Shown: in pieces, positions 2,847-32,613 of the stretch | How positions within the stretch are numbered: position 1 is the stretch's first letter | Layout of the letters: every line of letters starts with the position of its first letter | From: an uncultured Acidimicrobiales bacterium | GTDB taxonomy: Bacteria > Actinomycetota > Acidimicrobiia > Acidimicrobiales > VFJN01 | Length of the DNA stretch: 64,000 bases | Assembly (NCBI GenBank): GCA_963739835.1 | Contig: CAVUBW010000016.1 | Coordinates: 30,285 to 94,284 of the forward strand | Direction of reading: 5' to 3' | Program-made: the position numbers and the translations under genes | Notes under the pieces: generated by a model | The model's input: the letters and a program-made list of their open reading frames with translations, nothing else | Told to the model about the DNA's origin: nothing | The model's database searches: none

Positions 2847-3551
2847 CACGCAGTCCCCTCCGTGGTGGCGGGTTGCAGGTAGGCCTCCTGGATGTCGTCG
2901 ACCCGGCCGCGCAGGTCGGCGGCCGTGCCGTCGAGCTCGACGGCACCGCGCTTCATCACCAGGACGCGGTCGGCGACGCCGAGCGCCTTGTGGATGTGTT
3001 GCTCGACGAGGAGCACGCCCATGCCGTCGTCGGCTGCGGCCCGCACCGCGGCGAGCAGCCGGTCGACGACCATCGGCGCCAGGCCGAGGGACAGCTCGTC
3101 GACGAGCAGGACCCTCGACGACCGTGCCAGGCAGCGCGCCAGGGCGAGCATCTGCTGCTGGCCGCCCGACAGCAGCCCGACGCGGCGTTCGAGGTGCGTC
3201 CTCGAGCTCCGGGAACAGCTCGACGGCCCGGCCGATGTCGCACCGGCTCACCCGCAGGTTCTCCGCCGCGGTCAGGTCCATGAGGACGGCCCGCTCCTGG
3301 GTGACGACGGCGAGGCCCTTTCGGGCGCGGACGTGCAGCGGGTCACGGGTGCTCTGGCCGAGGAGCCGCACCTCGCCGCCGAGCGGCGGCAGCTCACCGG
3401 AGATCGTGAGCAGCGTCGTCGTCTTGCCGGCGCCGTTCGGCCCGAGCAGGGCGACGACCTCCCCGGCGTCGACCCGAAGGTCGAGGCCGCGGACGATCTC
3501 GACGTCCCCGTAGCCGGCGCGCAGCCCGACGGTCTCGACCAGCGTCGTCAT
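2846..3551 (-). CDS. livF: Branched-chain amino acid type ABC ATP-binding protein (frameshifted)
   Basis: GPNGAGKTT Walker A, LSGGQQQMLAL signature, LLVDELSLGLAP, LLVEQH. Confidence 0.85.
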
Positions 3552-6310
3552 GCCGGCTGCTCTGTCGTCGTGCTCGCAGACCCCGAGGTACGCCTCGATG
3601 ACGCCGGCGTCGCCGGCGATGTCGCCGGGCGAGCCCTCGGCGATCTTCCGGCCGAAGTCGAGCACGACCATCCGGTCGCAGGTCTGCAACAGCAGCGGCA
3701 CGTCGTGCTCGATGACGAGGATGCCGATCCCGTGGCGCTGCGCCATCGCCCGGATGGCCTCCCCGAGCTCGGACGACTCGCGGGCGTCGAGACCGGCGGC
3801 CGGCTCGTCGAGAAGCAGCACCGCCGGTTCGGTCACCAGCGCCCGAGCGATGCCGACGAGGCGCGACACGCCGTGGGGCAGCGGCGGACGGCCGCTGGTC
3901 GAGCACATCGCCGAGCCCGAACTCGGCGACGAGGTCGTCCATCAGCGCCGTCGGCGTTTGCCGGCCCGGCCGCACGAGGTCGACGAGGTACTGCCACCGG
4001 GACTGGTCGTCGGCCGCGACGAGGAGGTTCTCCCGGACCGTCATCTCCTCGAACAGCTCGACCGCCTGCCACGAGCGCACGATCCCGGCTCGGGCCCGCC
4101 GCTCGACCGACCAGCCGTCGATGGGCGTGCCGTCGAAGCGCACGGAGCCCCGCGACGGGCGCCGTGAAGCCGGTGACGACGTCGAGCAGCGTCGTCTTGC
4201 CGGCGCCGTTCGGGCCGATGAGCCCGACGACCTCGCCCGGCTCGACCGAGAAGCTCACGCCGTCGAGGGCGACGACGCCGCCGAACGACACGCCGACGTC
4301 GCTGACCTCGAGCGTCGCCGGGGCCCGGCGGGGCCGTGCCGGTGCCGGCACCTCCTCGACGCGCCGCCGCGGGACCCGGAACGGCGCGGTGATGCGTTCG
4401 GCGGACACGCGACCACAGGGACGCGACGCCATCGGGCGCCTGCCGCAGCACCAGCACGCGCCGACACGCCCGAGAGGACGGCGAGCCAGGACACGATGTC
4501 GGTCCCTTCCGGCACGACGTCGGCGAAGATCACGTTGCCGATGGACGGTCGGCGCACCGGCGGCGCCGAGCACGACGCCGGCCACCCAGGCGAGGCCGCC
4601 GACGACGGCGTACTGGATCAGCAGGACCGAGCCGACGACGTTGTACTGACGCTCAGCTGCACGTTCGGCTGCCGCAACGACAGCAGCGTGCCGCCGAGGG
4701 CCGCGATCGCGGCGGCGACCGCGAACGCGTACACCTTCGCCCCCACGACGCCGACTCCGAGCGACGCCGCGGCCCGTTCGTTGCTGCGGACGGCGAGCAG
4801 CCGGGCCCCGGCCCGTCCTCGCCGTAGGTTGGCGACGAGCAGCCCGACCAGCACGAGCATCACGAGCACGAACACGCCGTAGCGCTGCGGGTGGTCCGAG
4901 CGGGTCGAGGTCGATGCCGAGGAACGACACGTCGTCGATCGGCAGGCCGCGGACGCCGCCGGTCAGGGCGCTGTTGGTGAAGATCAGCGAGCTGAACATC
5001 AGCGCCATGGCGAGGGTCGCCACCGCGAGGCTGGTGCCGCGGGTGCGGATCGCCGGCAGGGCCACGACCACGCCGACCAGGGTCGTCACGACGATCGCCG
5101 CCGAGGAGCGCCAGCTCGAACGGCCAGCCGTTGACCGACATCGAGCCGGGCCACGATCCACGCCCCGAACCCGGCCAGGGCGAACTGGCACAGCGACAGC
5201 TGACCGGCGTAGCCGGCGACGACGACGACCGAGGCCAGGATGATGGCGATGGCGAACGTGGAGATGAGGGCGTCGGTCCAGCGTGTCGACCCCGACCAGG
5301 AGCGCTACGCCGACCACCCCGCCCACGATCAGGGGCAGCAGCGACACCGAGCCCGACCCCGGTAGCGGCAGCTGGGCGACGGTCTCGCCGCGCTGGAGCC
5401 GCGACCGGCCGGTGACGATCATGTAGCCGAGGATGATCGCCAAGCGGGACGGCCTGCGACGAGACCGGTCAGCGACGCGGCGCTCACGCCGAGGGCGTCG
5501 GCGATGTCGGGCTGGAACAGCGAGATCTCGCTCTGGATGATGCCGATCACCAGGGCCGCGGCGACCGTGACACCGAACGACGAGAAGCGGCCGACCAGGG
5601 CGGCCGCGAGCGCCGGGATCACGGCGATCGACAGCACGGCGGCGTTGAGCGTGACGATCGGGGCGAGGAGGATGGCGGCCAGCGCCGACAGGCCCCCGGC
5701 GACGGCGAAGTTCACGAGCTCGATCTGGTTGGGTGACCAGCCGGCGCTCGCCGCGACCCGGCGGTTCTCGGCGACCGCCGAGGTGGCGAGGCCGAACAGC
5801 GTTCCCGAGTAGACGAACCGCAGCACGACGGCGCACGCCAAGGCGATGCCGATGAGCAGCAGCCGGTCGAGGCCGATCATCACGTCGCCGAACAGCGTCA
5901 CGTTCTGCGACGGCAGCATCGGCCGGGGCTGCACGATGCGAGGGCCCCAGCGCAGCACCATGAACGCCTGGCCGGCGCTGAACAGCGCGAGGGTGGCGAT
6001 GAGCCGCGCGAGCTGCGAGGCGTCGCGGAGCAGCGCCAGCACGCCGTAGGTCAGCAGCCCGAGCAGGACGCCGACGACCGACGCCGATCGCCACCGCGGC
6101 CGGCGTGGCCATGCGTCGTCGCGCAGGTCGTAGCAGTACGTACGCGGCGATCCCGCCCATGGCACCGGCGCTGAAGTTCAGGACGCCTGACGCCCGGTAC
6201 ACGATGACGATGCCGAGCGCGACCAGCGCGGTGAGCGCGCCGGTCGCAGCGCCGAGCAGCACGAAGCGCAGCGACGCTTCGCTGAACAGTTCCGTGGCCA
6301 GGCAGCCCAC
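3548..6310 (-). CDS. Fused LivH-LivM-LivG ABC permease/ATPase (frameshifted)
   Basis: IVIVYRASGVLNFS permease start, LAVRSNERAAASLG, GPNGAGKTT, LLLDEPAAGLD, IEHD across several frames. Confidence 0.8.
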
Positions 6311-6424
6311 GAGATACCCCCCCTTCGGGGCGGCCGAGACGCCTGCCGTCCCCCGGGAGCCAACATAGCTGCACTACGGGTGCGCTGCCTCTTGACCGCA
6401 GGTTCCCTCGCCGAGTCGTGGCGA

Positions 6425-16033: not shown

Positions 16034-16111
16034 CGACGCGGGGCGAGCGCTGGACGATCCTCGCCAATGGCCTGCGATGCATCGGCGCATCGTGGGTTGG
16101 AGGATCGTCAC

Positions 16112-16342
16112 ATGGGACTGATGTTCCGTCGTCGTCGACCGCTTGCTCGGCTCGCGGTCGCGGCCGCCTTGTACGCAAGGATCGAGGGTTTGCCGGGCCG
16201 GCTGCCGCGGTACGTGGCGCCGCCTCCGGCCTCGACCGGGGGCGAGGTCGACGAGCTGAGCCGCCTCGTCCAGATGCGCGACTCGGGCGACCTGAGCGAT
16301 CCGGAGTTCGCCGCCGCCAAGTCCCAACTCCTGGGCACCTAG
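16112..16342 (+). CDS. SHOCT domain protein with Arg-rich N-terminus
   Basis: DELSRLVQMRDSGDLSDPEFAAAKSQLLG; GGAGG RBS. Confidence 0.8.
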   Translation: MGLMFRRRRPLARLAVAAALYARIEGLPGRLPRYVAPPPASTGGEVDELSRLVQMRDSGDLSDPEFAAAKSQLLGT

Positions 16343-16365
16343 AAGCCCAGCACGACGAGACGAGC

Positions 16366-16794
16366 ATGACCACAACCGCTTCCACCCGGGCGAGCGCGAT
16401 GCGGCGCCTCATCCGGGCGGCCGTCACGGGCGACGGCGACTCCATGGTCGATCTGGTGACCGCCGACGTCACGAGCTGGTCGCCAAACCTGTTCACGACG
16501 TCCCGCAGCGAGCTCCTGGCGGCGCTCGACGCCCGGGACGATGCCTTCACCGGCGTCACGGTCGAGGTGCGCGCCCTCGACCAGATCGGCGACAAGGCGA
16601 TCGTCGAGTGGCATGTGGCCGCCGACCACACAGGCCCGCTTGTCGTCGACGATGACCTGCGCATCGAGCCGACCGGCCAGCGGCTTCACCTCTGCGGTAC
16701 GACCGTCGCGGAGTTCGACGGCGACCGGGTGTGTGCCTTTCGTAGCTACTTCGACGACCTCGCGCTGGTCGAACAGGCCCTGGCCCTCAGGTGA
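16366..16794 (+). CDS. SnoaL/NTF2-like (ester cyclase fold) protein
   Basis: VEWHVAADHTGPL, TTVAEFDGDRVCAFRSYFDD. Confidence 0.85.
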   Translation: MTTTASTRASAMRRLIRAAVTGDGDSMVDLVTADVTSWSPNLFTTSRSELLAALDARDDAFTGVTVEVRALDQIGDKAIVEWHVAADHTGPLVVDDDLRIEPTGQRLHLCGTTVAEFDGDRVCAFRSYFDDLALVEQALALR

Positions 16795-17415: not shown

Positions 17416-18405
17416 TCAGTCGTCGATCTCCTCCCAGACCGCCTGCTCGTCGTGCTCCTCCCAGTCGGCGCCTGGCAGCGCGATGGCCCAGCTCGTCCAT
17501 GTCCCGACCGGCCGAGCCGGGGTGGTCCTGACTCTGGCGCGGACGACCATGCCGGGCGTGAGCTCCACGGGCGAGCGCAGCGGGGCCGTCGTCATCCCCC
17601 AGTGCGTCGGTGGATCGCCGGGTCCCACGGAGAGCGAGATGCCGGGCGCGAGCTCGGCGCTGAACCAGAGTGCGAGCGCGTTGGCCGTTCCGTGGTCGCG
17701 GACGGGCAGCAGCGTCTCGGCTTCGTGAGGCGCCTGCGCCTGCTCGAGCGGGATCAGGTCCGCGTCCGTCGTCCACAACCGACTCGGCTCGGAGCGCCTG
17801 TCACCCGCCGCAAGGTGACGGAAGGTGCCGGAATAGAGGATCTCGTTGACGGTCTTCTCGACCAGGTCATCGAGCCTGAGGCCGTACGGGTTGTCCCGCA
17901 GGAAACTCCACCATGTCCGCGAGGTAGCGGTCGTGCACCAGCGCGGCCCACGCCGTGACCGAGCGGGGGATCATGACGCCGCCCGGCTTGAGCCAGCGGT
18001 CACGGGCGGCGATGACCGGAACGAGCATCCCTTCGTCGATCCCGAACCCTCCGAGCCACTCCGAGACGATCACGTCGACACGTTCCGGCGGCTCGATGTC
18101 CAGGACGTCGCCGTGGATCACCTGGACGATCTCCGTCGACCCCGTTCGCGGCGGCCAGTTCCTGCGCCAGGACGGCGATCGACGTCTGCTCCACCGCGTA
18201 GACGCGCGCAGCACCCGCCCGCGCCGCGAACACGCTCAGGATGCCGCTTCCCGCCCCGACGTCGAGAACGATGTCGCCGGGGCGCACGACCGCGTCGATC
18301 GCAGCGCCGGAACGCCTCGGTGCGGACGCGGTCGCGGATCATCGTCCGGTGTACCTCGAACTCCGCGTACATCGGGTCCGGCGGGTGCTTGATCGGCGTC
18401 CGCAC
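17416..18405 (-). CDS. Protein arginine N-methyltransferase (PRMT)-like SAM methyltransferase (frameshifted)
   Basis: [60 protein letters not shown] rebuilt over several frames. Confidence 0.85.
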
Positions 18406-18440
18406 ACGCTCAACCTAGGTTGACCATCTGAGCGAAGGAA

Positions 18441-18533: not shown

Positions 18534-18794
18534 ATGGGATTCAGGCGACGGACACGACGCCGGGCGCTCGTCGCCGGAGCGGCGGTTGCTCACCACCGGG
18601 ACAGGATGTACGCCGAGGAGCAGCAGCAGGCCGACGACCAGGCGCCTGCCGACGACTACCAGGACCAGGCGCAATATGCGCCGCCTCCGGCGGACCCGGC
18701 CGACCAGATCGAACACCTCGCACAGTTGCACGCCTCGGGCGCGCTGACAGACGAGGAGTTCGCGGCGGCCAAGGCGAAGGCCCTCGGGTCGTGA
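18534..18794 (+). CDS. SHOCT domain protein with Arg-rich N-terminus
   Basis: MGFRRRTRRRALVAGAAV...DQIEHLAQLHASGALTDEEFAAAKAKALG. Confidence 0.88.
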   Translation: MGFRRRTRRRALVAGAAVAHHRDRMYAEEQQQADDQAPADDYQDQAQYAPPPADPADQIEHLAQLHASGALTDEEFAAAKAKALGS

Positions 18795-18835
18795 ACGCCC
18801 GCCGGACTCGCCAGAACACGGGAACAGGGGCTGCA

Positions 18836-19253
18836 ATGAGCGAATCGCGCAAGGACGTGCTGTTGAAGGCGCTCGAGGCCGAGGTCGGTGGCGCATCGGT
18901 CGATCTGGGCACCCTGTTCACCGACGATGTCGTCGGTTGGTCGCCGTTCGCGACGGTGTCCGGACTGACGGCACTCGCTGACCTCGCCGCCGCTCCGTGA
19001 CACCGCGTTCTCCAACGTCGTCATCATGTTCCGAGGACTCGACGAAGTGGGCAACAAGGCGTTCGCCGAATGGCTCATCGAAGCCGATCACACGGGGCCA
19101 CTGGTCCTCGACGAGGATGCCGTGTTGGAGGCAACGGGACGGCACGTCCAGATGGCCGGCGTCACCGTGGCCGACTTCCGCGACGGGAAGATCCGGTCGT
19201 TCCGGACGTACTTCGACGACATCTCGCTGATCGAGCAGATCGTCGACGCCTGA
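18836..19253 (+). CDS. SnoaL/NTF2-like protein (frameshift near 18995)
   Basis: LFTDDVVGWSP, AEWLIEADHTGPL, FRDGKIRSFRTYFDD; paralog of 16366-16794. Confidence 0.8.
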
Positions 19254-19266: not shown

Positions 19267-19719
19267 GTGGAGTTCCACGTCGAGGACCATCCGGATCCGC
19301 TCGACATCGAGGTCCTCGAAACGCAGATCCGTCGTGAGGCGTCCGCCGCCATGGGACTCGGTGACGAAGTCGACCTGGCGATCTTCGTGCGCGACGCCGG
19401 CAGGGTCGTCGCCGGTATCAGCGGATGGACCTGGGGCGACTGCTGCGAGCTGCAGAACCTCTGGGTGGAGCCAGGTCTCCGAGGTCGCGGCCTCGCGACT
19501 CGGCTCATCGCCGCCGCCGAGGCCGAGGCGGCGGCCCGCGGGTGCTCACAGACCGTCCACTTCACCTACGACTTTCAGGCTCGAGCTCTCTACGAGCGGA
19601 ACGGCTACGAACTGGTGGGTCGAGTCGAGGACTTCCCATCAGGAACGGACGTCCTCTGGTACCGCAAGCGCCTTCGAGCCACCGGAGCTCCCGCCGACGC
19701 GAGGTGCGACCGGTCGTAG
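19267..19719 (+). CDS. GNAT family N-acetyltransferase
   Basis: LWVEPGLRGRGLATRLI, FQARALYERNGY. Confidence 0.9.
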   Translation: MEFHVEDHPDPLDIEVLETQIRREASAAMGLGDEVDLAIFVRDAGRVVAGISGWTWGDCCELQNLWVEPGLRGRGLATRLIAAAEAEAAARGCSQTVHFTYDFQARALYERNGYELVGRVEDFPSGTDVLWYRKRLRATGAPADARCDRS

Positions 19720-19986
19720 CCCGTCGCGGCGGCCTCCAAATCCGGCGCGCCTCGTCCCGAGCGGATGATCTGGACAACGACCCGCGGTAGGACCGCCCGC
19801 TGAATGGGAGCGGATCATTCCGTGCGCGAGGTGCCTCGCGGCGGCGCGCTCGACCAGCACCGGTACGAAGGTCTCGACCCGGGCTCGATCGAATCGGCCG
19901 AGCTCCTCCTCGATGACCTGGTCGACGAGCGCGGCGCCAACCAGGTCATCGAAGCGACGATGGAGCCTGTTGCTCACGCGGTGCAT
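19639..19986 (-). CDS. Small three-helix-bundle protein (DUF3562-like); ends uncertain
   Basis: RLHRRF...VDQVIEEELGRFDRARVETFVPVLVERAA. Confidence 0.5.
   Translation of the reverse strand: MHRVSNRLHRRFDDLVGAALVDQVIEEELGRFDRARVETFVPVLVERAAARHLAHGMIRSHSAGGPTAGRCPDHPLGTRRAGFGGRRDGLRPVAPRVGGSSGGSKALAVPEDVRS
19752..19768. promoter_or_regulatory. TCATCC-N5-GGATGA palindrome
   Basis: TCGTCC-CGAGC-GGATGA. Confidence 0.5.
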
Positions 19987-20090
19987 GGGGGCGCTCGCTA
20001 ACGCGCCACCGCTCGGGGATCGCCGCCATCCGTGCGCTGAAGCGAGGAGCGGTACTCGACTGGCTCGTCCGTTCCGGGCGTGCCCTCGGC

Positions 20091-20549
20091 TCAGGCCTCA
20101 CGCATTTCGCGTCCATGGGCCATCAGGGCCCAGATCACGAGGACGTCGATGGTGATCACGGTCAGTGCCCAGAATGGGTAGACCGGGATGAAGGCGAAGT
20201 TGACCAGCATGCTGACGCCGGCGACGAGGACGCCAACCATCCGAGCGAGAAACCTGCCGCTGAACACCCCGAAGCCGGCGAGCACGATGATGGTGCCCAG
20301 GATGATGTGCACCCAGCCCCACTGCGACACGTCGAGGTAGACGTTCGCACGGTTGGCGAAGACGACCCATTCGTCGTTGACGGCGGCGACGATGCCGTAG
20401 AAGAGATTGAGGCTCCCGCCGATGATCAACATCACGCCCGCGAAGGCGATCCAGCCGGTCCAGCCGGTCGGTTCGTCGTAGGACGACGCCGGCAACGGCT
20501 CGTCTCTGCCGGCACTTCCCGTCTGCCCGCCTATGTCTGTGGTTGCCAT
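20091..20549 (-). CDS. DUF7144-type four-TM membrane protein
   Basis: GWIAFAGVMLIIGG...WGWVHIILG...ARMVGV...PVYPFWALTVITIDVLVIWAL. Confidence 0.8.
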   Translation of the reverse strand: MATTDIGGQTGSAGRDEPLPASSYDEPTGWTGWIAFAGVMLIIGGSLNLFYGIVAAVNDEWVVFANRANVYLDVSQWGWVHIILGTIIVLAGFGVFSGRFLARMVGVLVAGVSMLVNFAFIPVYPFWALTVITIDVLVIWALMAHGREMREA

Positions 20550-20647
20550 TTGCAAGTCCCCTCTTTCGGCTCCCGGGGCCCGATGATCGCCGGGTTCCAG
20601 GAGGAATCGGATCGTGCTGACCGTAGAAAGGGTCGGCAGGCACGTCG

Positions 20648-20704
20648 TCAGCCGGACAGGATGAGATCGACGAACAAGTCGTGGATCTCATCCCCCCGGG
20701 CTGA
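20648..20704. promoter_or_regulatory. Two TCATCC-N5-GGATGA palindromes
   Basis: TCAGCC-GGACA-GGATGA (20648-20664) and TCATCC-CCCCG-GGCTGA (20688-20704). Confidence 0.6.
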
Positions 20705-20787
20705 GGACGCGATCGACGATTTTCGTACGATCCGGTGTTCCGATCACCCGTTCTCCGATCCCGATAGACGTCGGTATCCGGGAAGTC

Positions 20788-20937
20788 GGCAACCCCGGCC
20801 AGACCCTTGCCGTGCTCGAGGCGCTCGTGGGCCAGATCTTCCTCGTGACCGCCATCGGAAAGGTCGTGAGCGCTTGGCGGCCGAGGCGTTGGCGCCCGTC
20901 TCCAGAGGAGGCGCAGGGCGGCGTCGATGAGTCGTGA
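20788..20937 (+). pseudogene. C-terminal remnant of a potassium/ion channel (Ion_trans_2-type) gene
   Basis: GNPGQTLAVLEALVGQIFLVTAIGKVVSAW...stop; no TxGYG filter or start codon seen upstream. Confidence 0.55.
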
Positions 20938-20951
20938 GCCCCGGGTGAAGT

Positions 20952-20968
20952 TCATCCGTTGGGGATGA
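20952..20968. promoter_or_regulatory. TCATCC-N5-GGATGA palindrome
   Basis: Perfect TCATCC-GTTGG-GGATGA, about 79 bp before ATG 21047. Confidence 0.7.
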
Positions 20969-21046
20969 GGCTGGGGGCCACGGGCGGTGCCACTGTCAAC
21001 ATGGTTGGCCGCAGCCGCGTCCACGACCGGCGCCGAGGAGGTGCGA

Positions 21047-21295
21047 ATGGCAGGGTTGAGTGTGTCGATGGTGACCGAGCACGGTGGGCATCGGATCCTG
21101 GTCGGCACGGACGGTCTCCACCTCGAGACACCACCCGTCGAGCATCTCGCGTTCTACATCGGGCTCGGCGCGCTCGTCGCGCTGAACGTGGTCGAGCCGC
21201 CGGTGGCAGTGGCTCTCACGGTTGGTCACCTCCTCATCGACTTTACGAGGCGGCCGGGGCTACGGTCGCTCGGGGAGGCTCTCGACGAGGTCTGA
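21047..21295 (+). CDS. Small membrane protein (82 aa)
   Basis: GAGGAGG RBS; PPVEHLAFYIGLGALVALNVVEPPVAVALTVGH. Confidence 0.7.
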   Translation: MAGLSVSMVTEHGGHRILVGTDGLHLETPPVEHLAFYIGLGALVALNVVEPPVAVALTVGHLLIDFTRRPGLRSLGEALDEV

Positions 21296-21500
21296 CCGTC
21301 CGGCCCGCAGCCGTGCCCGCCCCTCGTATCAGTCGATTGCTCTTCATTGACCGGGACCAGCGGCGCGGTCCCGGGGCGGCAGTTGACGTCACGTTTGCCC
21401 TGTCGTCACCTTCTCTTCAGCTCCGGTTCCTCCCGTCCTGTCCGTGCGGTCATTTGGGCTCCATACGATCACCCGAGTCGACCCCGTGGGGAGGACACAC

Positions 21501-21608
21501 ATGGAGGGCTTTGTGCAGTCTCTGGTCGTCATGGCCCTGCTGGTGCTGGCCGAGCTGGCGATCAGGGAGTTCTGGCAACGACTGCGCCCACTGAGCCTGT
21601 TGGGCTGA
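21501..21608 (+). CDS. 35-aa single-TM peptide (below ORF-track cutoff)
   Basis: GGAGG-N7-ATG; MEGFVQSLVVMALLVLAELAIREFWQRLRPLSLLG. Confidence 0.55.
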   Translation: MEGFVQSLVVMALLVLAELAIREFWQRLRPLSLLG

Positions 21609-21717
21609 ACAGGTCTGGCGCCGGCCGCGTCCTGGCTTTTCGGGCCGGCCGGCGGGACAATCGGATCTCCGCATCGAGATGCCGCCAGGCGCCGCGGAAT
21701 CGAGCAGGAGGTTCACC

Positions 21718-21921
21718 ATGGAGGAGATGTGGCCGCTGGCACTCGGAGCAGGGGCTGTGCTGCTCGTCCCACCGCTACGCCGACGGGTGAAGCCTGTTGC
21801 CGTCGCAGTCGCCCGCACAGGGCTGGGACTCGTCGGCGTCAGCGTGACGGGCGCCGTGAACGTCGCTACTGCGGTCGTGCGAGGTGAGCCTCAGGCGGCG
21901 GGCAAGGGCTCTGCGACATAG
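21718..21921 (+). CDS. Small hydrophobic protein (67 aa)
   Basis: AGGAGGT RBS; MEEMWPLALGAGAVLLVPPLRRRVKPVAVAVARTG. Confidence 0.6.
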   Translation: MEEMWPLALGAGAVLLVPPLRRRVKPVAVAVARTGLGLVGVSVTGAVNVATAVVRGEPQAAGKGSAT

Positions 21922-21944
21922 CCGGGCTCTGGTTCCCGTCTGCT

Positions 21945-24900
21945 CTAGCAGTTCCGGCCGGTCGACGGCTGCGGGGGGTCCGTCCGCCCCGATGGCATCG
22001 TCGACAGGGCTCGCGGTAGGACGGCGGCGCCGGCGGTCGCGGCGATGGACGCCGTGGTGCTGATGGTCCACCCGATGGGTCCGAGGGGTCGGCAGCCGAA
22101 CACGTGGGACAGGCCCGGTGTCTGGACGATCCCGGCCAGGATTGCGGCGGAGCCGAGGCCCGCGGCCAGGACGACGGGATCCCGGCCGCCGACCAGGATG
22201 GTCTGACCGAGCTGGGTCCCGACGACGGCCGTCATCCCGACGGTGCTGGCGTGAGCACGCGTGCCGGTGGCCCGGGCGGCGAGCCACGCGCCGGTCGCGC
22301 CGGCCGTGGTCAGGGTGGCCCGCATGGCGATGTCGCGGGCGAACGTGCCCAGAGAGGCTTCTGGACCCTCGCTCACGAGCTGCTCGGGGGTCGGCCGTGC
22401 CGGCTGGCGGATCGCGATGGCGAGGGCCGGAGCGGTGTCGGTGAGCAGGTTGACCAGCAGCAGTTGTCGGGCGTTGAGCGGAGCCCGGCCTTGGATCGCC
22501 GAACCCGTGATCATGAAGCCGATCTCGCCGAGGTTCCCACCGACGAGGATGGCTGCCGCGTCCCGGGCCGACGTCCACAGGGCCCGGCCCTCGAGGAGGG
22601 CGTCGACGAGGGTCTCGACCCTGTCGTCCACGACCACGAGGTCGGCGGCGTCTCTGGCGGCTCCTGTGCTCTGCTCACCGAACGCGATCCCCACGTCGGC
22701 CAAGCGGATCGCCTGGGCATCGTTGGCCCCATCACCGGTCATCGCAACCACGCGACCGGCCTGCTGGAAGGCCCACACGATACGCACCTTGTGGACGGGC
22801 GTGACCCGGGCGAAGACGGCCACCCCGGGCATGGCGTCGGCCAGTTCCTCGTCGCTCATCGCGTCGAGGTCAGGTCCGGTCAGCATGCGCTTGCCGTTGA
22901 CCAGTCCCAGCTCCGCAGCGATGGTCGCCGCGGTGCTGGGGTGATCGCCGGTGACCATGACTACCTCGACCCCGGCCCGCTGCAGATCGTGCAGGGCGGC
23001 CGCCGCCTCGGGGCGCACCGGATCGCTGTAGGCCACGAACCCGACGAACGCCAGGCCGTCGACCCCGTCCTCGTCGAGGCTCGCGGCTCCGGGCACGTCG
23101 CGCTCGGCCACCGCCAGGACGCGGAGCCCCCGCATTGCCATGCCATGCGCGTGGTCCAACAGACGGCGCCGCCGGTGCCGGGTCAACCGGTCGTTCGCCG
23201 CGCCGTTCGGCCACGTCGAGCACCGGGCCAGGACGACCTCGGGTGCCCCCTTGACGGTCAGCTTCGCCGACCCACTTCCGTTCCCCAGAACCGCGTGGAA
23301 TGCCCGCCCCGCCTCGAACGGTAGCTCGGCCAGTTGCCGCCACTCGTCGGCACCGTCGCTCGCCGTGACCTCGGCCATGCCGGCGCCGTCGACCAGGGCG
23401 CGGTCCTCGGGGTGCACCAGGTCGTGGCGCGCCGCGCTCGGCGAGGCCCGGAGGCCGGCGGCCAGGATGCTCCGGGCCTCTGGAGCGACGTGCGGCGTGT
23501 CGACGGGCATGTCGGTGACCCCATCGGAGACGGTCACCAGCGCGATGCGCCCTTCTGTCAGTGTCCCCGTCTTGTCGACGCAGGCGACGTCGACGCGGCC
23601 CAGGGCCTCCACCGCGCGTCGAGAGCGCACCGACCGCGCCGCGCCCCGCCAACCGCCGGGCGGCGCTGAGCTGGGCAACCGTGGTCAACAGTGGCAGCCC
23701 TTCCGGCACGGCGGCAGCCGACAGGGCCACACCGGACTCGACGATCTCGGCCAGTGGGGCGCCACGGATGCCGGCGAGGCCCGCCAGCAGGCCGGCGCTG
23801 CCGACCGCGACGGGAGCGGACAGCCGGCCCAGCGTGTGCAGCCGCGCCTCGAGACCGCTCGGCGGGGGCTCCGCGCCCGGGAGGTGGGCCGTACGGCGAG
23901 CCTCGGTGTCCGGCCCGCTGGCCACGACCACGGCGGTCGCCTCCCCGGCCGCCACCGCGGAGCCCTCGAACAGCATCGAGGTCCGGTCCGCGACGGCGGC
24001 GGCGAAGGACGGCGCCGCGCTCTTGGGCACCGGGAGCGACTCCCCGGTCAAGCTCGACTCGTCGACCTCGAGAGACCGGGCGTCGACGATCCGGCAGTCC
24101 GCGGACACGGTCTCTCCCGCCCGCAGCCGGATCAGGTCACCGGCGACGAGGTGGCGGGCGTCGACCAGAGCCTCCTCCCCGCCCCGGAGCGCCAGCACGA
24201 CGTGACCTGCTCGGGCGTCGAGTCGCTCGATGGCTTGGTCCGCACGGTGTCGCTCGACCCCACCGATCAGGGCATTGAACAACACGACGCTGCCCACCAT
24301 GGCCGCGTCGACCGTGGAGCCGACTGCCGCGGCGAGGCCGGCTCCTGACGCGAGGATGGGCGTGAAGGGGTTGACCAACTCGGCCGCCACCGACCGGACG
24401 AGCAACAGGGGGCCGGGAACCGATCGGGCCTCCGCCCGCTGGCGACGCGCCGCTTCGTCGTGCGACAGCCCCCCGGGCGTGGTCCCCAGCCGCTCGACGA
24501 CGACCCGAGCGTCGAGCTCGTGCCACGGCACCGGCTCGGGCCAACTCGGCATCGGCCGCCCCGCCAGCTCGATCCCCGCTCGCGTGCCATTGGCCAGCGC
24601 CACGGCGGAGGCGGCGTTCACCGCGTTCATCGTCCGCCCGACCGCCCCGGACGGGCGTCCGAGGAGCCCGGCCACGGCACCGGTCGCCGCACCCAGCGTT
24701 GCCACCAGCGCGGTCTCGCGGGCCACGCGGCGCGCGATCGAGCAGGCCTGGATCAGCAGGTAGGCATGTGCCAGCTCACAATCTTCCGCGAGCACGTCGG
24801 CTCCCCATGGTGGCGGGCCCGACCCGGCACGCAATCCGAGCGCGACGTCGGCGGGCGGCAGCCCCGGTGAGCCCCCGGGGGCGACCAGGAAAACGACGGC

Positions 24901-26427
24901 ACCCTCGCGCTGCAGCGAACGGATGGCCCGCGGGAGGCGGGACCCGTTGCGCACCGTGCGCTCGCACCTGAGCCTCGAGGCCACACTGTCGTCGCGCCCG
25001 GCGATGACGATCTCGAGACCCGCGAGCCGGACTGCGGCGATCAGCTCCTGGGCACCGCCGCGCAGGCGGCGCCGGGTGCCGGTCAGCGCCACCAACGTGC
25101 GGTGACGGACCAGTCCGAGCACCAGCCCGTCCTTGGCCAGCCGCCGGGCCGCCCGCTTGCGGCCGGGCGGCGCCTCGACGCCGAGACGATCGATCGGCGC
25201 CAGCGTCCATCCGCCCTGCCGGAACACCGCGCCGCGTGCGCTACCAGCCAAGAGGCTGCGGGCCCGGCGCTCGGCCTCCCGGGCGTCGTCTGCGCCGTTG
25301 CCCTCCGCCGAGGCGATCATCACGACCTCGGACAGCTCGAGCTCGTCGGACACCAGCAGGTCCTCGTCGATGACCACGCAGTCCACCCGGTCGAGCCGCC
25401 GGAGGGCATCGGGATCGAGCGGGAGGAGGCCGCGTGAGGCGAGCAGACGGCCCACCTGGGCAGCGAACCCCTCGCGGCCAAAATGGGCTGCCTTCGGCAC
25501 CCCCGCCTGCAACATTGCTGCCGCCTGCGCGAGGCTCCGAGTCGTGACCAGCGTTGCTCCGGCCGCCCCGAGCGAGGCGAGCAACACCCGATCCGTGAAC
25601 TGCTCGATAGGCCCGTCGGCAATCGGGGCCTGGCGACCTGTGTCCGGTGCCGCCTTCGGATGGTTCGTGGGAGCCTCCCACAGCGTCGGTTCCCGTTGAC
25701 GCCAGAGGCTGCGCCGCGCGCTCATCTCCGCCATGAGCGCCGAGCGGTGCGCCAGATCAACAATGGGACCGAGCGGCGAACCGGAGACGCCCTGCATGAC
25801 CCCGTTGCCCAGCGCCAGGGCCAGCTCGGCCGGTCTCGTCCCGAGGCCGTGCTCGACGAGGCGCCGAAGCCTCGGCTGGTGCTCGAGGATCGAGAGCCCG
25901 GCGGCCGCATACCCGACGAACGGGATCGGTGGGAGCCGGGCGACCCTCTGGAACGTGGCGAGCCCCAGGCCAGTCGCCGATCCTCCGATCATTGCCCCGG
26001 TCCGCAGCAGCGGTTCGACGTCGGCCGGGTGGGGCGGTGCTCCGGAGCCGAGTGGCTCCTCACGGACGCCGAACTCCTCCTCCACCGACTCCACCGACTC
26101 GACCAGCTCATTCGGAGAGGCGGCCCGCTCGTCGAACGCCACGACCACACGTCCCAGGTCCCCGACGGCCTCGACCCACTGGACCGCATGGTGCGCGCCC
26201 AGCTTCGCCTCGAGGCGCTCGCCGTAGCGCTCGGCGTCCACGGGACCGACCCGCCGCACCTCGATGTGCGCGTGGCCACCGCTCGACCACACCCGCCGCG
26301 CGCGACGCCGACCCGGGTCGAACAGACGGCTCAGCGGATCGAGCAAGCCCACGGCCGCCTTTCCACCTTGTGCGTCATGACCCGGTGCGGTGACAGCAGA
26401 CGCCGGGTCGGGAGGGCGGGGGAGCAC
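21945..26427 (-). CDS. Large cation-translocating P-type ATPase, CtpH/CtpI-like (frameshift near 23630; start approximate)
   Basis: DESSLTGES, AVPEGLP, DKTGTLT, KGAPE, TGDHP, MTGDGAND; long N-terminal extension. Confidence 0.88.
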
Positions 26428-26617
26428 CCCCCGTCACGGCGACCGTTGGGACTGCGGAGGACGCCCGGCACGGCTCGCTGGGCTCGCCGACTTGCCAGTC
26501 TGCGGCAACCATCGGACTTCCCTCCTCGCTCGATCCGTGCCGGTTGGTGGCGTGGCCGGAGTCACTGGAACCCACCTGCGTGCGTCCGACTATGGGGCCG
26601 TGCATCGGGGCCCCGCC

Positions 26618-26876
26618 TCATCCGACCGGGATGATGCGGTCGACCCGGCGTGGTGCCGGTAGAACTCGAGGGCGCCATCGCGGTCGGGGCGGGTCATCAG
26701 CCCGGATGATCGCGGCGTCGGCGGGCGCCATGTCGGAGTCGATCATCCCGGTCGGATGAGGCGAGGCCGTAGTGGCGGGCCGACAGTCGTGGGCGAGCGC
26801 GCACAGTCCAACCGGGGCTCATGGCGGGCGCACGATCGCCGTCGTCGCCCGGGGTGTCCCCATCCCAGAGGGATGA
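26618..26876. promoter_or_regulatory. Cluster of four TCATCC-N5-GGATGA palindromes
   Basis: 26618-26634 (perfect), 26694-26709 (N4 spacer), 26743-26759 (perfect), 26860-26876 (CCATCC). Confidence 0.7.
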
Positions 26877-29480
26877 TCAGAGCAGGCCGAGGTGCGTCGC
26901 CTTCTCGACTGCTGCGGCCCGGCTATCCACGCCGAGCTTGCGGTAGGTGCTCTGCAGGTGGGTCTTGAGTGTGTTCAGGGACACGTAGAGCTCGGACGCG
27001 ATCTCGCGGTTGCTCAAGCGGGTGGGGAGGTAGCGGAGCACGGTGCGCTCGCGGTCGGTCAGGCCGACCTCGCCGGCGGACCCGGCTCGCTCGACCGGCA
27101 TGGGCCGGGTCGTCGCCTCGACGACGGCGTGCTCCAGCGCTCCGAGGGCCGGCTCCGGCGCATCCCCGCGCAGCCGGGCCTCGAGCGCCAGGGTGACGTC
27201 CATGCCGGCGTCGGTGATCGAGCGCGCGAAGCCCTGCGATCGTGACAGATCGAGGATCCTGTCGAGCTGTCGGTCGACGTGGATCGCGTCGTGCTCGAGC
27301 AGCCCGATCTGCGCCTCGACGAGGCAGCGCTCGAGTTGCGGTCTCGGCTCGACGCTGGATTCGAGCGTCTCCAGGCATGCCGCCGCGGCCTCGGGGTCGC
27401 CTCTGCGGGCGTGGTGCTCGGCCTCGGTGATCAGGCGACGGGGACCCGAGCCCAGCCGCGCCAGGTGGTCGGCGGTGACGTCAAGGCCCGCCGCAAGACG
27501 GATCCGTACCTCGAGCGCATCGCCACGTACGACGAGCGGGGACTCCACGTCCTGGCGAGAGAAGGCCCGCGCCCGGTCCAACCGGTGCAGCGCCTCGTCG
27601 AACTCGCCGCGTCGCAACGCGACCCGGGCCAGCTCCACCAAGCTCAACAACGCGAACGGCGGCCGGCCGGGTGCCGCGATGTCGAGCGCGCGCTCGAGGT
27701 GGCGTTCCGCGGTGGTCAGGTCACCGGCCTCGGCCTCGAGGGCGCCGAGCGTCCGCATCACGTCCGCCATGAGGAAGTGCCGCTCGGCCCCCAGCTGCGG
27801 CACCAACGCAGCCGCCCGCCCCGCGAGCTCGCCGGCGAGCCGGAGGTTGCCGCATTCGAGCTCGACCGCGCTGATCGCCCCAACGAGCGCGACCTGCTGC
27901 ATCAGTGGGTAGCGCGCCCACCGGTTGATCGCGTCGGAATAGACGGCCCGAGCGTCCTCCGGCCGGTCCAGGTAGTCGAACCCCCGGATGAGCGTGAGCG
28001 GGGCCATGTCCACGAAATCGTCCTCGCCGGGGGGCGACCGTCGCACGGCATCCTCGGCGTGTGCGAGGGCAGCACCGATCTCCCCGCGGAAGCCGAGCCA
28101 CATCGCTCTCGCCAGGGCCTGCCGCGCTACGTACCGGGGGCTGGGATCGGTGGGTCCGAGGGTGTCCAGGTAGGCGAGCCACCGCCCGGCCTCGTCGATC
28201 GAGCCAGCCATGATGAGGGCGATGGTGTAGTCGAGTACCTGGTCGCTGCGCGCCGAGAGCACCTCGCCGCCGAGCTCGGTGATCCACGAGCTGATCGCGG
28301 CACGGCCACCGAGGTACTTGTCGACGGCATGGTCGCGGACAAGGGCGAAGGCGCGGTCGGCGTCTGCTCCGTCGACGGCATGGCGTACCGCGCGTGCGAT
28401 GTCATCGTGCTGCTCGTACCAGTGCGAGGCCGCAACGTTCAGCACGTTGACCCGGTCGGGATCCCGCGCCGACAGCCAGCGCCGGAGGACGTCACGGAAC
28501 AGCTGGTGAAAGCGGTAGGTTCCCGCATCGGTGCCGACCCGGACCAGGAAGAGGTTGGCTGTCTCGAACGCCTCGAGCCTGTCTGCCGCGTCGTGTCGTC
28601 CGGTGAGGGCCCGGCATCGGTCGGCGTCGAACTCGTCGAGCGTGGCGAGGGCGAGCAGGCAGTCGAGGCTTTCTGCGTCGAGCTGAGCGAGCACCTCGCT
28701 GGCGAGGTAGTCGGTGATGTTGTGATCGGATCCGGCGAAGGCTCTTACGAAGGCGGACGGGTCGGGGTGGTCGCGCAGTGCGAGCGCCGCCAGGTGCACC
28801 CCTGCGGCCCAGCCTTCTGTTCGCGCCGTCAGCGCGTCCGCGTCTTCGGGGGTGAGCTCGATGCCGTGCGCGGCGACCACCCGCGCGGTGTCGTCGGCCG
28901 AGAAGCGCAGCTGGTCGGTTCGTAGCTCGCCGAGGATGCCGTTGGCTCGCCACCGGTGCAGTGGCAGCGGCGGGTCGGATCGGCTGCCCAGGACGAGTGC
29001 CACGCCAGGTGGGAGTCGCTCGACCAGGAGACCAAGCGGCGCGACGGCGTCGGCAGGGACCATGTGCAGGTCGTCGATCACCAGGGCGGCACCCCGGTCG
29101 AGCCGGGCAAGGTCGTTCACGAGCGACGGCACCACGTCATCGAGCGCGAGCGGGTCTTCGGCGAGTAGCGCCCGGGCTTCGTTCCCGATCCCGTCGCCCA
29201 GGTGCGCACAGGCGGCGACGATCGACATCCAGAACCGGGCGCTGTCGGCGTCGGTGACGTCGCATGTCAGCCAGGCCCACGATTCCTCCGGCCGGTGGTG
29301 GACCCAGTCGGTCAACAACACCGTCTTGCCCGCTCCGGCCAGCGCAGCGATCAACGTCACCGGGTGCTCGTCGACGAGCCGGTCGAGCAAGGCCACGGGG
29401 TGGTCGCGCGCCATGACCGTTCGCGGCGGTGTGGGCGGTGCGAACTTTGTGACCGCGAGCAGCGGAACTGCATCCGCCAT
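26877..29480 (-). CDS. MalT-like ATP-dependent LuxR regulator (STAND)
   Basis: TKFAPP, ALAGAGKT, LVIDDLH, TEGWAAG, RFHQLF, LTDRERTVLRYL...SLNTLKTHLQSTYRKLG. Confidence 0.92.
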   Translation of the reverse strand: MADAVPLLAVTKFAPPTPPRTVMARDHPVALLDRLVDEHPVTLIAALAGAGKTVLLTDWVHHRPEESWAWLTCDVTDADSARFWMSIVAACAHLGDGIGNEARALLAEDPLALDDVVPSLVNDLARLDRGAALVIDDLHMVPADAVAPLGLLVERLPPGVALVLGSRSDPPLPLHRWRANGILGELRTDQLRFSADDTARVVAAHGIELTPEDADALTARTEGWAAGVHLAALALRDHPDPSAFVRAFAGSDHNITDYLASEVLAQLDAESLDCLLALATLDEFDADRCRALTGRHDAADRLEAFETANLFLVRVGTDAGTYRFHQLFRDVLRRWLSARDPDRVNVLNVAASHWYEQHDDIARAVRHAVDGADADRAFALVRDHAVDKYLGGRAAISSWITELGGEVLSARSDQVLDYTIALIMAGSIDEAGRWLAYLDTLGPTDPSPRYVARQALARAMWLGFRGEIGAALAHAEDAVRRSPPGEDDFVDMAPLTLIRGFDYLDRPEDARAVYSDAINRWARYPLMQQVALVGAISAVELECGNLRLAGELAGRAAALVPQLGAERHFLMADVMRTLGALEAEAGDLTTAERHLERALDIAAPGRPPFALLSLVELARVALRRGEFDEALHRLDRARAFSRQDVESPLVVRGDALEVRIRLAAGLDVTADHLARLGSGPRRLITEAEHHARRGDPEAAAACLETLESSVEPRPQLERCLVEAQIGLLEHDAIHVDRQLDRILDLSRSQGFARSITDAGMDVTLALEARLRGDAPEPALGALEHAVVEATTRPMPVERAGSAGEVGLTDRERTVLRYLPTRLSNREIASELYVSLNTLKTHLQSTYRKLGVDSRAAAVEKATHLGLL

Positions 29481-29621
29481 CGCCTCTCCGCCGTCCTTCG
29501 GGTTGTGTGGGCTCCGGAAATCATCCTGGGTAGGGCGACGCTGCATCACCCCAAGAGTGGCAAGGCTACTACGAACAGCGATTTCAGCCAGGCCCCTCTG
29601 GACCCCGGGGGTGCCCGTGTC

Positions 29622-29816
29622 GTGCGTTACGACGTGACGATCATGGGGCGTGGTGACCTGGTTCGGAGTGCGTTCAGCGACGTGACGGTGCTCCGTGGCC
29701 GGGTGTGACGGTGCTGTCCGCGGATCTCGATCAGGCCGCGCTGCACGGTCTCCTCGGGCGTCGCCGACCTCGGGATCGAGCTCGTGGGCGTTCATCGTGT
29801 CGCGGGTTCGATCTGA
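29622..29816 (+). CDS. Small protein of about 65 aa of the type found next to MalT-like LuxR genes (frameshifted)
   Basis: RYDVTIMG..LVRSAF...TVLSADLDQAALHGLLGRVADLGIELVGVHR rebuilt over frames. Confidence 0.6.
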
Positions 29817-29960
29817 TCCGTCGACGCGGCCCAGGCGGACAACCGAGGAGGGTGGGTGTGACGGTGAGCAGTTCTTTGTCGCATCGTGTGGCGGTTCGAA
29901 CCGCCGTCGAGCGATCACCACTCCACCGGCACGCGCCCGCACAACCACTGGAGCGCCCCG

Positions 29961-32497
29961 ATGCGCTCGCACGCGGAGCGCCCCCACCCGTGCCGCTCTT
30001 CGCGATCCGCCGGATGCGCCTCGAGGGACGCCTCGAGGATCACCCGGACCGGCACGTGCTCCTCGTGCGCGGTCCTGCTGGAGCGGGCAAGACGGTTCTC
30101 GTCTCGCAATGGGTGAGAACACGCACCCAGCCGTGCGCCTGGCTCGCGATCGACCCGACCCACAACGACGAGACCGTTCTGAAGCAACAGTTGGTCAGGG
30201 CGGTGGAGCGGCTCTCCCCGGAAGGCTCGGTCGTGGTCGGTCGATGGGCGGTCGCCGGCGACATCGACGGCACCGTGGTCACTGACGTCCTCAACTCGGT
30301 GACACAGCGCCTCGGAACGGGCATCACCGTCGTCGTCGACGACGTCCATCTCCTGCACGATCGAAGCGCGCGGCACGTTCTCGAGCTGCTGGTGGAGCAT
30401 CCGCCCGACCAGGTTCGGCTCGTGCTCGTGTCGCGATCGAAACCCCGGCTCCTGCTCGAACGCGCCCGACTGCGGGGTGACCTGGTGGAGATCACCCCTG
30501 CCGAGCTGCGGTTCGAGCGCGCCGAGATCGACGCGCTCGCCGCGACGTGGACCGGGCGGCAGCTCGATGCCGCCGACCTCGAGCAGGCGACGCTGGGCTG
30601 GGCCGCGGGGCTGCGGCTTGCGTACCTCGACGGCTCGAACAACGCCACACCGTCATCCGCCGGGCCCGATCTCGACGGCATCGCCACTGGGTACATCGGG
30701 GAGCTGATCGCTGCCTTACCCGCGACCACGCGCTCGTTTCTCCAGGTGACCTGCTGGCTGCCGGTCCTCACTGAGCAATTGTGTGCTGCGGTCGCCGCTG
30801 ATGAGCGCGGCCGTCCGTCATCCGCCCGGCCCGACATCGAGGCGCTCCCCGCCGTCCCGGTCACCAGCCGGCCCGGGGCGTTCCGTCATCCACCCATGCT
30901 GATCCGTGTCCTGCAGCGGGAGTGTCGGCGCGGTGACCCACGCGCCGCGCTGACCGCCCGCCGCCGCGCTGCCGAGGCCTGTCGAGACACCGGGGATCTC
31001 GTCACCGCCATCGAGCTGTTCCTGCAGGCCGCCTGCACGGACGAGGCGGCCGCGTCGTGCGCGGACCTGGCGGCCGTTGACGATTCAGCCTTGCGCCGGG
31101 TCGACGAGCTCTTGCTGCGGCTCCCCGAGATCACGCCTGTCAGCCCAGGGTGGTCGGCCTGGCGGATCCGCGCCGCCGTCGCGGCCGGGCGTGTCGACGA
31201 GGCGTGCCGCCTGCTGAAAATAGCAGACGCGGCCGCCAGGTCGGCCGGCCTGGCCGGCCAGGAGGACAGCCCGGATCTCGTCATGGCGCGGGCCGTGGTC
31301 GCGGAGCGCCTGGGCGATGTCACCGACCTGCTCGCCAGCGCCGATCATCTGCTGACGCCCGTCGTGCAGGCCGGAACCAGCCCGTGCGCGACCGTGCGAG
31401 CGCACGGCTGGCGAGTTCGCGCCCTGGTTTGGGCCGGTGAGGCGGAGCAGGCGAGGTCGGCACTGCGGGAGCTCGACCAGGCAGCCCTCGGAACCGAACT
31501 CGAGGCGGCGATCGACATCGCCCTGGCTCGTGCCTGGATCGCCTGGCAGGACGGTGACATCTCGGACGTCGCGGAGTCGGTCGCCTCCGTCGAGGGCGAC
31601 GGTCGTAACCGCGGCTCGGGCTCGGCCGAGCTTGCGCTGCTGGCAGGATTGGCCCACCGCGAGTGCAACCACCTGGCCAAGGCCGTGCAGCTCCTCGACG
31701 AGGCCCACTATCTCGCGGTCGTGCACTCTCACCACGTCCTCGCCGCGCTCGCCGCCAGCGAGCTTGCTCGCTGCCACCGGGCATCGGGCGCCGACATGGA
31801 GGCGCTGGAACTGGTGGTCTCCACCCGTGCCGCGCACCCTGAACTGCCACCGGCGATCGATCTTCACCTCCGCGCCACGGAGGTGAAGGTGCGCCTCGAC
31901 CAGGGCGATGTGGCCGGAGCCCGGGCCGCGGTCCGCGACGGACCACCGGGAGCCGACACGCAGCTGCTGGCCGCGCGGGTGGCGCTGCAGGAAGCCCCGA
32001 CGGAGGCCCGGGAGCTCGCGGAGTCGGTCGACCCGAGCGCACCCCGGCACGTCGTGGAGGCGCTCCTGTTGCGCGCCCAGCTGCCGGATGCCGGACCGGA
32101 GGACGAGTCGGCGGCCGTCATCGAGGCGATCTCGGTCGGCGGGCCCCTCGGCCTCGTGCGAACGTTCCTCGACGAGGGACCCGCGCTGAACCGGCGGCTC
32201 TCCGAGTTGGCGCTCGACCACACCGACCGGACCCTCGGCCGCCTGGCCGCCCTTGCGTGCCACGAGCTTGCCCTGGCATCGACGCGACGGGAGACCGGGC
32301 CGATCGAGCAGCTCACCGCCCGCGAGCTCACGGTGTTGCGCATGCTGCCGCTGCGCATGTCCAACCGCGAGATGGCCGCTCAGCTCTACATCTCCGTCAA
32401 CACCATCAAGACACACGTCCGAGCGATCTACCGCAAGCTCGACGTCCCCCACCGGTCCGCGGCGGTCCATCGGGCCACGGCATTGCAGCTCGTCTGA
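29961..32497 (+). CDS. Second MalT-like LuxR regulator (start uncertain)
   Basis: RGPAGAGKT, VVVDDVH, TLGWAAG, LTARELTVLRML...SVNTIKTHVRAIYRKLD. Confidence 0.88.
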
Positions 32498-32507
32498 CTC
32501 CCCAAGC

Positions 32508-32533
32508 TCATCCCGGTCGGATGAGGCGAGGCC
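32508..32533. promoter_or_regulatory. TCATCC-N5-GGATGA palindrome inside a 26-bp sequence identical to 26743-26768
   Basis: TCATCCCGGTCGGATGAGGCGAGGCC; palindrome ends about 90 bp before the arylsulfatase ATG. Confidence 0.7.
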
Positions 32534-32613
32534 CGCTTCCGCGACCCGACAATGGCAGGGAGAGCACGCGGCGTCGCGTGACTCCGGCCACTGGCCCGAA
32601 CCGGAGATGGACG

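Follow-up and report, generated by a model that had tools for sequence, protein, structure and literature searches.

A type I PRMT-like methyltransferase gene, spread over three reading frames, in an uncultured Acidimicrobiales bacterium

Regulation by protein arginine methylation is regarded as a eukaryotic trait. A 64,000-nucleotide stretch of contig CAVUBW010000016.1 (assembly GCA_963739835.1, the whole stretch being called the window below) from an uncultured Acidimicrobiales bacterium holds on its minus strand a gene with the motifs of the eukaryotic protein arginine methyltransferases (PRMTs), interrupted by three frame breaks. The locus raises the question whether this gene belongs to the PRMT family, whether it is intact in the cells, and what its product might methylate. 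Judged from its sequence, the gene belongs to the type I PRMT fold family, as one of its bacterial members. It is likely that it encodes a type-I-PRMT-like guanidino-N-methyltransferase dependent on S-adenosylmethionine (SAM), most likely intact, with the breaks being consensus errors from a mixed population. A preliminary description had spotted the gene correctly and over-interpreted it as rare and island-borne.

Gene structure and family membership

The gene was located on the minus strand at 18405..17416, with 328 codons and a stop after three extra bases were discounted, in four stretches across three frames. It starts with GTG (18405-18403) and stops with TGA (17418-17416), exactly the limits given in the preliminary description, and every PRMT motif named there was recovered in the minus-strand translation where it had been placed. 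The GC3 (third codon position GC) frame plot and tblastn with the intact relative P0001 agreed on three +1 shifts with no residue lost; the plot switched frame at the same three places as the translation, and the tblastn blocks covered residues 1-23, 24-79, 77-161 and 155-317 of P0001 in frames -1, -2, -3 and -1. The parts of the gene, all on the minus strand, are as follows.

17416..18405, minus strand: PRMT-like methyltransferase gene (translation, tblastn, family alignment)
18304..18405, minus strand: frame piece 1, 34 aa, N-terminal helix region, with the N-terminal motif at 18319-18369 (translation)
18303..18304, minus strand: extra base 1 (alignment to 12 relatives)
18136..18302, minus strand: frame piece 2, 55 aa (AIDAVV...AANGV), with SAM-binding motif I at 18234-18269 and post-I VYAVE at 18189-18203 (translation, Pfam)
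18134..18135, minus strand: extra base 2 (alignment to 12 relatives)
17906..18133, minus strand: frame piece 3, 76 aa (EIVQVIHGD...DMVE), with the double-E loop at 18032-18064 and LKPGG at 17978-17992 (translation, Pfam)
17905..17905, minus strand: extra base 3 (alignment to 12 relatives)
17419..17904, minus strand: frame piece 4, 162 aa (FLRDNPYG...PPTHWG...WEEIDD), with the dimerisation arm, the beta-barrel and the THW loop at 17599-17607 (Pfam PRMT_C, PRMT2 match, model)

The window's own pieces already pointed to the family. A 52-aa piece matched the PrmA-type methyltransferase model of Pfam (40.4 bits), a 71-aa piece matched PRMT5 (24.6 bits, cutoff 22.9), and the 172-aa C-terminal piece alone matched PRMT_C (PF22528, 31.6 bits, cutoff 27), so the C-terminal beta-barrel domain is present on the window's own piece; the 34-aa N-terminal piece had no Pfam match. 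The 172-aa piece also matched PRMT2 (5fub) at E 2.9e-07, with THW aligned on THW. On these comparisons the match of the gene to PRMTs is well beyond chance.

When a protein collection (proteins of 302-2000 aa) was searched with the C-terminal piece, 618 of 3181 candidates matched at E <= 1e-3, and the best 120 of the 618 had 85-96% identity and were mostly 317 or 328 aa long. The names given by the sources were 'protein arginine N-methyltransferase 1' (JGI), 'type I protein arginine methyltransferase', 'SAM-dependent methyltransferase' and 'predicted RNA methylase', and one cluster member was named '50S ribosomal protein L11 methyltransferase' by NCBI. The best match, P0001, was an intact protein of 317 aa with 94% identity, the same as the window gene at 299 of 317 aligned positions. 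None of 32 listed NCBIfam families reached its cutoff for P0001; prmA (TIGR00406) gave 39.2 bits against a cutoff of 183.15, which rules out a PrmA identity and makes the L11 methyltransferase name a mis-annotation. PrmA shares the class I SAM-binding domain with the window protein, and it lacks the double-E loop, the THW loop and the PRMT beta-barrel. Against the PDB, P0001 matched 72 distinct sequences at E <= 1e-3, and the best 60 of the 72 were all arginine methyltransferases, with human PRMT6 (4y30) at the top (E 3.4e-41, residues 2-286), followed by PRMT2, PRMT8, PRMT1, PRMT3 and CARM1.

The catalytic residues were checked in a family alignment of 25 sequences with 29-91% identity to P0001, whose residue numbers are used here, the window translation being scored with X at each break. 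All 24 invariant and all 25 near-invariant residues were kept by the window gene. The invariant columns (25/25) include D14 and R17 (DxxRT), D37, G39 and G41 (motif I), E61 (post-I), E104 and E113 of the double-E loop, and T255 and W257 of the THW loop, while H256 occurs in >=90% of the family. Motif I with the acidic post-I residue, the core of SAM binding, is thus present in the window; E104 and E113 align to the double-E loop of PRMT6, with a spacing of 9 residues between the two Glu in the window gene, and the THW of the window aligns to that of both PRMT2 and PRMT6. The Met of the N-terminal helix, M11 in HRTM, is found in >=90% of the family and in the window. In work on PRMT1 this Met is tied to asymmetric (type I) products. 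The preliminary description had read the gene as a PRMT and not a PrmA, and this stands: a bacterial type I PRMT fold family member with its catalytic signature intact.

A structure model, one of the checks suggested earlier, gave a PRMT-like fold. AlphaFold2, run on the family alignment with P0001 as first row, predicted it with a pLDDT (predicted local distance difference test) of 94.1 and a pTM (predicted template modelling score) of 0.91, and Foldseek against the PDB placed PRMT6 (4y2h_B) first, with E 2.2e-33, TM 0.85 on the query and 31% identity; CARM1 also had TM 0.85. The two-copy complex prediction scored 0.80, versus 0.00 for the best control, with runs agreeing in at least 87% of contacts and a partner pLDDT of at least 91; of 30 proteins solved as one-chain pairs, 20 reach the mark set for this score, as does 1 of 23 single-chain ones. 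In the predicted interface, the helical arm (residues 153-178) lies against residues 5-22, 42-48 and 64-76 of the partner's SAM-binding domain, which is the arm-to-Rossmann arrangement of the solved type I PRMT dimers.

Bacterial PRMT homologues are already known in print (PMC3417536) and in database names. A one-genome-per-species prokaryotic scan gave at least 599 matching stretches and at least 555 loci encoding a relative, and members of the clusters already carry the name PRMT; the rarity implied by calling such enzymes mainly eukaryotic therefore does not hold. From these, 80 loci were kept, 57 close (L001-L057) and 23 distant (L058-L080). The close loci, all from metagenome-assembled genomes (MAGs), have 65-99% identity to P0001 and are labelled Actinomycetes, Acidimicrobiia, Thermoleophilia and even Chloroflexia. 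The distant ones are 39-45% identical and are labelled Acidobacteriota, Myxococcota, Verrucomicrobiota/Lentisphaerota/Kiritimatiellota, Planctomycetota, Poribacteria, a Paracoccaceae bin and others.

The three frame breaks

The three single-base insertions of the window gene were absent from all 12 aligned relatives, and over the gene the alignments of most of the 57 close loci contain exactly three gaps. At break 1 the window has CGGCG-C-T-GCG, where 12/12 relatives have one base (G, T or C). At break 2 it has GTCGA-C-GGAG, and the relatives have GTCGA-GGAG or GTCGC-GGAG (A or C). At break 3 it has GTGGAG-T-TTCC, and the relatives have GTGGAG-TTCC or GTGAGT-TTCC (GAG or AGT). Each insertion thus falls on a polymorphic column, and the window writes two alleles in tandem. 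Of 951 columns, 107 show a second allele in 3 or more of the 12 relatives, and three of three insertions would fall on such columns by chance with a probability of about 0.001.

Frame junctions were also sought by homology over every window part with relatives, and only five sites were backed by open reading frames (ORFs) of many relatives. Junctions four and five, near 18977 and 33950, result from extra bases at 18992 in a SnoaL-like gene (50 loci aligned) and at 33962 in a gene at 32.6-35.0 kb (16 loci aligned). Both insertions are window-specific and lie on G/C-polymorphic columns with both alleles in tandem, so the tandem pattern was seen in 5 of 5 insertions examined. A count of frameshifts by Viterbi segmentation of GC3 was discarded as too noisy, since it split a continuous ORF of 2355 aa.

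Because the insertions double polymorphic sites and carry both alleles, the three breaks are probably consensus errors of assembly from a mixed-strain population, not marks of a pseudogene, and the gene would be intact in the cells. The substitutions versus the nearest locus, L009, were distributed over the codon positions as 9/6/34, and the clade of the window gene is, on its substitution pattern, under purifying selection.

Elsewhere in the window, Pfam domains were split between frames, namely ABC_tran (model positions 2-94 and 100-134) and BPD_transp_2 (4-58 and 60-249), which suggests that much of the window suffers from the same kind of indel. Many frame-split genes, including pieces of branched-chain permeases, lie at 1500-6400 (minus strand) and 52100-64000 (minus strand), and a ketosynthase domain in these regions begins at model position 145. 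Many cluster representatives in the protein library (P0122-P0131, P0147-P0154 and others) align with the query over a part of its length only, with 75-92% identity. Some of these are short proteins, and others, of about 290-370 aa, differ from the query outside the aligned region; it looks as if the same gene had been predicted incompletely or with a shifted frame in other assemblies.

Distribution, start and neighbouring genes

A quick IQ-TREE run was made on 80 rows, with L053, L055 and L057 dropped for broken matches and the root placed on two chosen eukaryote-like rows; several outer rows were joined by long branches. The close family including the window formed one clade (SH-aLRT 99) with L009 as nearest row (95% identity), the other phyla fell outside it, and the class labels were mixed within it. 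This clade is widespread in soil metagenome bins. The methyltransferase and its flanks are 75-92% identical in DNA across L001-L057 despite labels of three actinobacterial classes and Chloroflexia, and the mixed labels reflect either unreliable labelling or a region moving between lineages. An exhaustive library search gave 13,316 cluster representatives at E <= 1e-3, of which 957 reached E <= 1e-30. P0209 and P0254, both among the best 150, are closer to eukaryotic PRMT1/6 (200-240 bits) and may come from eukaryotes, so the library list mixes domains. A distant relative (32.7% identity), called L11 methyltransferase by NCBI, occurred in only 1 of 72,556 plasmid records, thus the family is not plasmid-borne. 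Some distant family members (P0136, P0137, P0141 and P0144) continue at the C-terminus for about 70-100 aa (FLA.L.VDP...GLS...AL.SR), a conserved extension absent in the window's clade.

Relatives share the N-terminal extension MRTPI[K/R], and P0105 and P0121 have no Met at the later MYAEF position, so the start was assigned to the GTG at 18405. Of the 57 close loci, 56 have a start codon at the conserved MRTP position (GTG 39, ATG 16, TTG 1). In 45 of the 57, and in the window, a TANNNT hexamer lies 6-7 nt upstream of this start, with a chance expectation of about 0.01 per locus for DNA of this base composition.

18412..18417, minus strand: TAGGTT, a -10-like TANNNT hexamer 6 nt upstream of the GTG (conservation in related loci)

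By analogy with the leaderless genes known from actinobacteria, TAGGTT appears to be the -10 box of a putative leaderless transcript. A perfect 14-bp palindrome, TCAACCTAGGTTGA, at 18410-18423 overlaps the hexamer; as a conserved operator it was rejected, being carried by 0 of 44 related loci examined.

Three neighbouring genes recur beside the methyltransferase gene. They were counted over the 57 close loci, some of whose contigs are too short to hold neighbours.

18534..18794, plus strand: small SHOCT-domain protein, divergent from the methyltransferase gene (SHOCT 38.3 bits, cutoff 27; 51/57 close loci)
18870..19253, plus strand: SnoaL-like gene with an extra base at 18992, start 18870 approximate (Pfam; 50/57 close loci)
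19267..19719, plus strand: GNAT acetyltransferase gene (Acetyltransf_1, E 7.2e-15; 51/57 close loci)

None of the three was found at the 23 distant loci, and in several close loci the block is inverted relative to the methyltransferase. A membrane protein is also among the neighbours in the window. The N-terminus of the SHOCT neighbour is near-invariant across L001-L057 and reads MG[F/M]RRR[T/V]RRRAL..AHH; after it come an acidic/Gln/Pro linker, which varies, and the SHOCT domain. In the window a SHOCT and SnoaL-like pair stands on both sides of the methyltransferase, at 16067-16794 (plus strand) and 18534-19253 (plus strand); the left SnoaL copy is about 42% identical to orthologues of the right copy and is not beside the gene in other bins.

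The neighbours kept in 50-51 of 57 close relatives make the gene a stable part of the lineage's chromosome. No integrase or transposase was found among the window ORFs scanned against Pfam, and the GC dip at the locus was small (0.68-0.71 versus 0.72-0.75), so the island proposed in the preliminary description was not borne out.

Further away, genes at 32.6-40.4 kb lie less than 10 kb from the methyltransferase in other bins, the window having about 13 kb extra between them. The extra part (19700-32600) carries a DUF7144 protein, a P-type ATPase and two large LuxR/MalT-type regulators, and it may be an insertion or rearrangement in this genome. The continuous ORF of 2355 aa at 43580-50644 (minus strand) joins biotin carboxylase, a biotinyl domain, carboxyltransferase and a wax-ester synthase/DGAT (diacylglycerol acyltransferase) domain; this fusion could itself be an assembly effect. 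Beside it, at 50367-58599 (minus strand), are polyketide-type genes with ketoreductase/dehydratase (KR/DH) and ketosynthase-acyltransferase (KS-AT) domains, in what is a lipid-synthesis cluster. Across the window Rfam gave no match at gathering scores. A role as an anti-phage defence methyltransferase was rejected, since PADLOC matched only residues 20-137, to the methyltransferase part of mad2 (66.5 bits), and gave no match for the 4 neighbours tested. Among the distant loci, one YcaO gene was found beside L079, the small ORFs beside the relatives look spurious, and in L074, L075 and L076 (Acidobacteriota), and only in those three, a same-strand protein of about 650 aa without a Pfam match lies directly upstream, 87-89% identical among the three.

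Alternative readings and proposed function

The gene could in principle be a real and very recent pseudogene, broken by three 1-nt insertions, as three frame shifts lie within 990 bp and the other broken genes of the window could mean genome decay. This is very improbable: no residue is lost, no in-frame stop lies inside any piece, the 94% identity to an intact relative and the bias of the substitutions to third positions are kept, hundreds of close relatives are intact, and mutation would not double a polymorphic site with both alleles in 5 of 5 cases. The pseudogene foreseen in the preliminary description as the outcome that would overturn its reading is thus probably not what the window-specific, tandem-allele breaks represent. 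Even less credible, to the point of being practically negligible, is contamination from a eukaryote or a recent transfer from one. The best matches among solved structures are indeed all eukaryotic PRMTs, but the gene has 72% GC and a high GC3, as in the rest of the window, it lies among bacterial neighbours on long MAG contigs, it shares more identity with relatives from other bacterial phyla (39-45%) than with PRMT6 (31%), and its clade stands among bacterial rows in the tree, although the root was chosen as two eukaryote-like rows and some joins are by long branches.

Some observations weigh against an intact, type-I-PRMT-like enzyme. In eukaryotic PRMTs an N-terminal YFxxY motif caps the SAM pocket; the window has PDPMY, in which only the last Tyr (Y2 of P0001, >=90% conserved) is present. 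Three breaks in 990 bp are dense compared with none in the 7-kb ORF at 43580-50644. The dimer score of 0.80 may reflect memory of solved PRMT dimers, since the predicted arrangement is that of the solved ones, and it shows likeness, not binding. No neighbour family that could hint at a substrate recurs across phyla, as judged by Pfam on 87 ORFs flanking the 23 distant relatives. A literature search, with subscription journals mostly outside its coverage, found no biochemically characterised bacterial enzyme with the full type I signature.

If the gene encodes a type-I-PRMT-like guanidino-N-methyltransferase, as is favoured here, its mechanism could be inferred by homology. The Rossmann domain would bind SAM through motif I, the acidic post-I VYAVE and the Arg of DRVRT, and the Glu pair of the double-E loop with the THW loop of the beta-barrel would hold the guanidinium beside the methyl donor. 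Two subunits are predicted to pair head-to-tail, with the helical arm (about 153-178) on the partner's SAM-binding domain, and the Met of HRTM argues for a type I product, that is, mono- and asymmetric dimethyl-arginine. Transcription would be leaderless, from the putative -10 box 6 nt upstream of the GTG. The eukaryotic type I PRMTs are alike in the Rossmann fold and the beta-barrel with its arm, in motif I, the post-I Glu and the THW loop, in the same 9-residue double-E spacing, in the Met of the N-terminal helix, and in the predicted head-to-tail dimer. They are unlike it in that identity is only about 31%, the window protein has no N-terminal targeting domain (SH3, zinc finger or PH), it has HRTM for HEEM and only the last Tyr of YFxxY, and its bacterial host is without known histones or RGG-rich RNA-binding proteins.

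The arginine methylation proposed in the preliminary description is a candidate activity, whose target could be a protein, a peptide or free arginine. The substrate is, as a best guess, an arginine in a protein or peptide, because the complete PRMT architecture fits such a target. A more specific proposal is that the enzyme and the divergent SHOCT protein form a writer-substrate pair, in which the RRR[T/V]RRR tail (6 Arg in 7 residues) would be methylated as a chromosomally conserved arginine-methylation switch. This Arg-rich tail is a speculative candidate and the pair an improbable one: Arg-rich N-termini are often seen in SHOCT proteins, and a neighbouring position kept in a single lineage is weak evidence for a substrate role. 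Less doubtful than the pair, though still unlikely, is that free L-arginine, a small guanidino compound or a peptide natural product is methylated instead of proteins. SznE may itself be a PRMT-like enzyme. SznE/StzE of the streptozotocin pathway are described as arginine-guanidino methyltransferases that make N-omega-methyl-L-arginine (PMC11705231), and SznE was used to find another such gene in an actinomycete cluster (PMC12637814). Aravind and co-workers (PMC3417536) describe bacterial PRMT-like 'peptide methylases' in operons with non-ribosomal peptide synthetase (NRPS), dioxygenase and amine-oxidase genes or inside giant synthetases, and they locate the bacterial sister groups nearest to eukaryotic PRMTs in operons for secondary metabolites. 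The SnoaL-like and GNAT neighbours conserved here are also small-molecule-type enzymes. On the other side, no NRPS, peptide dioxygenase, amine oxidase or SznF-like gene was found beside the window gene or in the 87 ORFs flanking the 23 distant relatives, more than 25 kb separates the gene from the polyketide and lipid genes of the window, and the full beta-barrel and the predicted dimer arm typical of protein-acting PRMTs are kept. In comparison with SznE/StzE, made by description only, actinobacterial SAM-dependent methylation of the arginine guanidino nitrogen would be shared, whereas those enzymes act on free arginine in a cluster with SznF and no such cluster exists at the window gene. The window gene belongs to the same broad bacterial PRMT radiation as the 'peptide methylases', but its clade encodes a stand-alone protein of 328 aa beside the SHOCT, SnoaL-like and GNAT genes.

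For the window itself, apparent pseudogenes are not to be taken at face value, and the type of artefact is recognisable by its tandem alleles. For the family, this compact, confidently predicted and widespread clade of 328-aa proteins is an entry point to what bacterial PRMT-type enzymes methylate and to how the eukaryotic PRMTs arose from bacterial ones.

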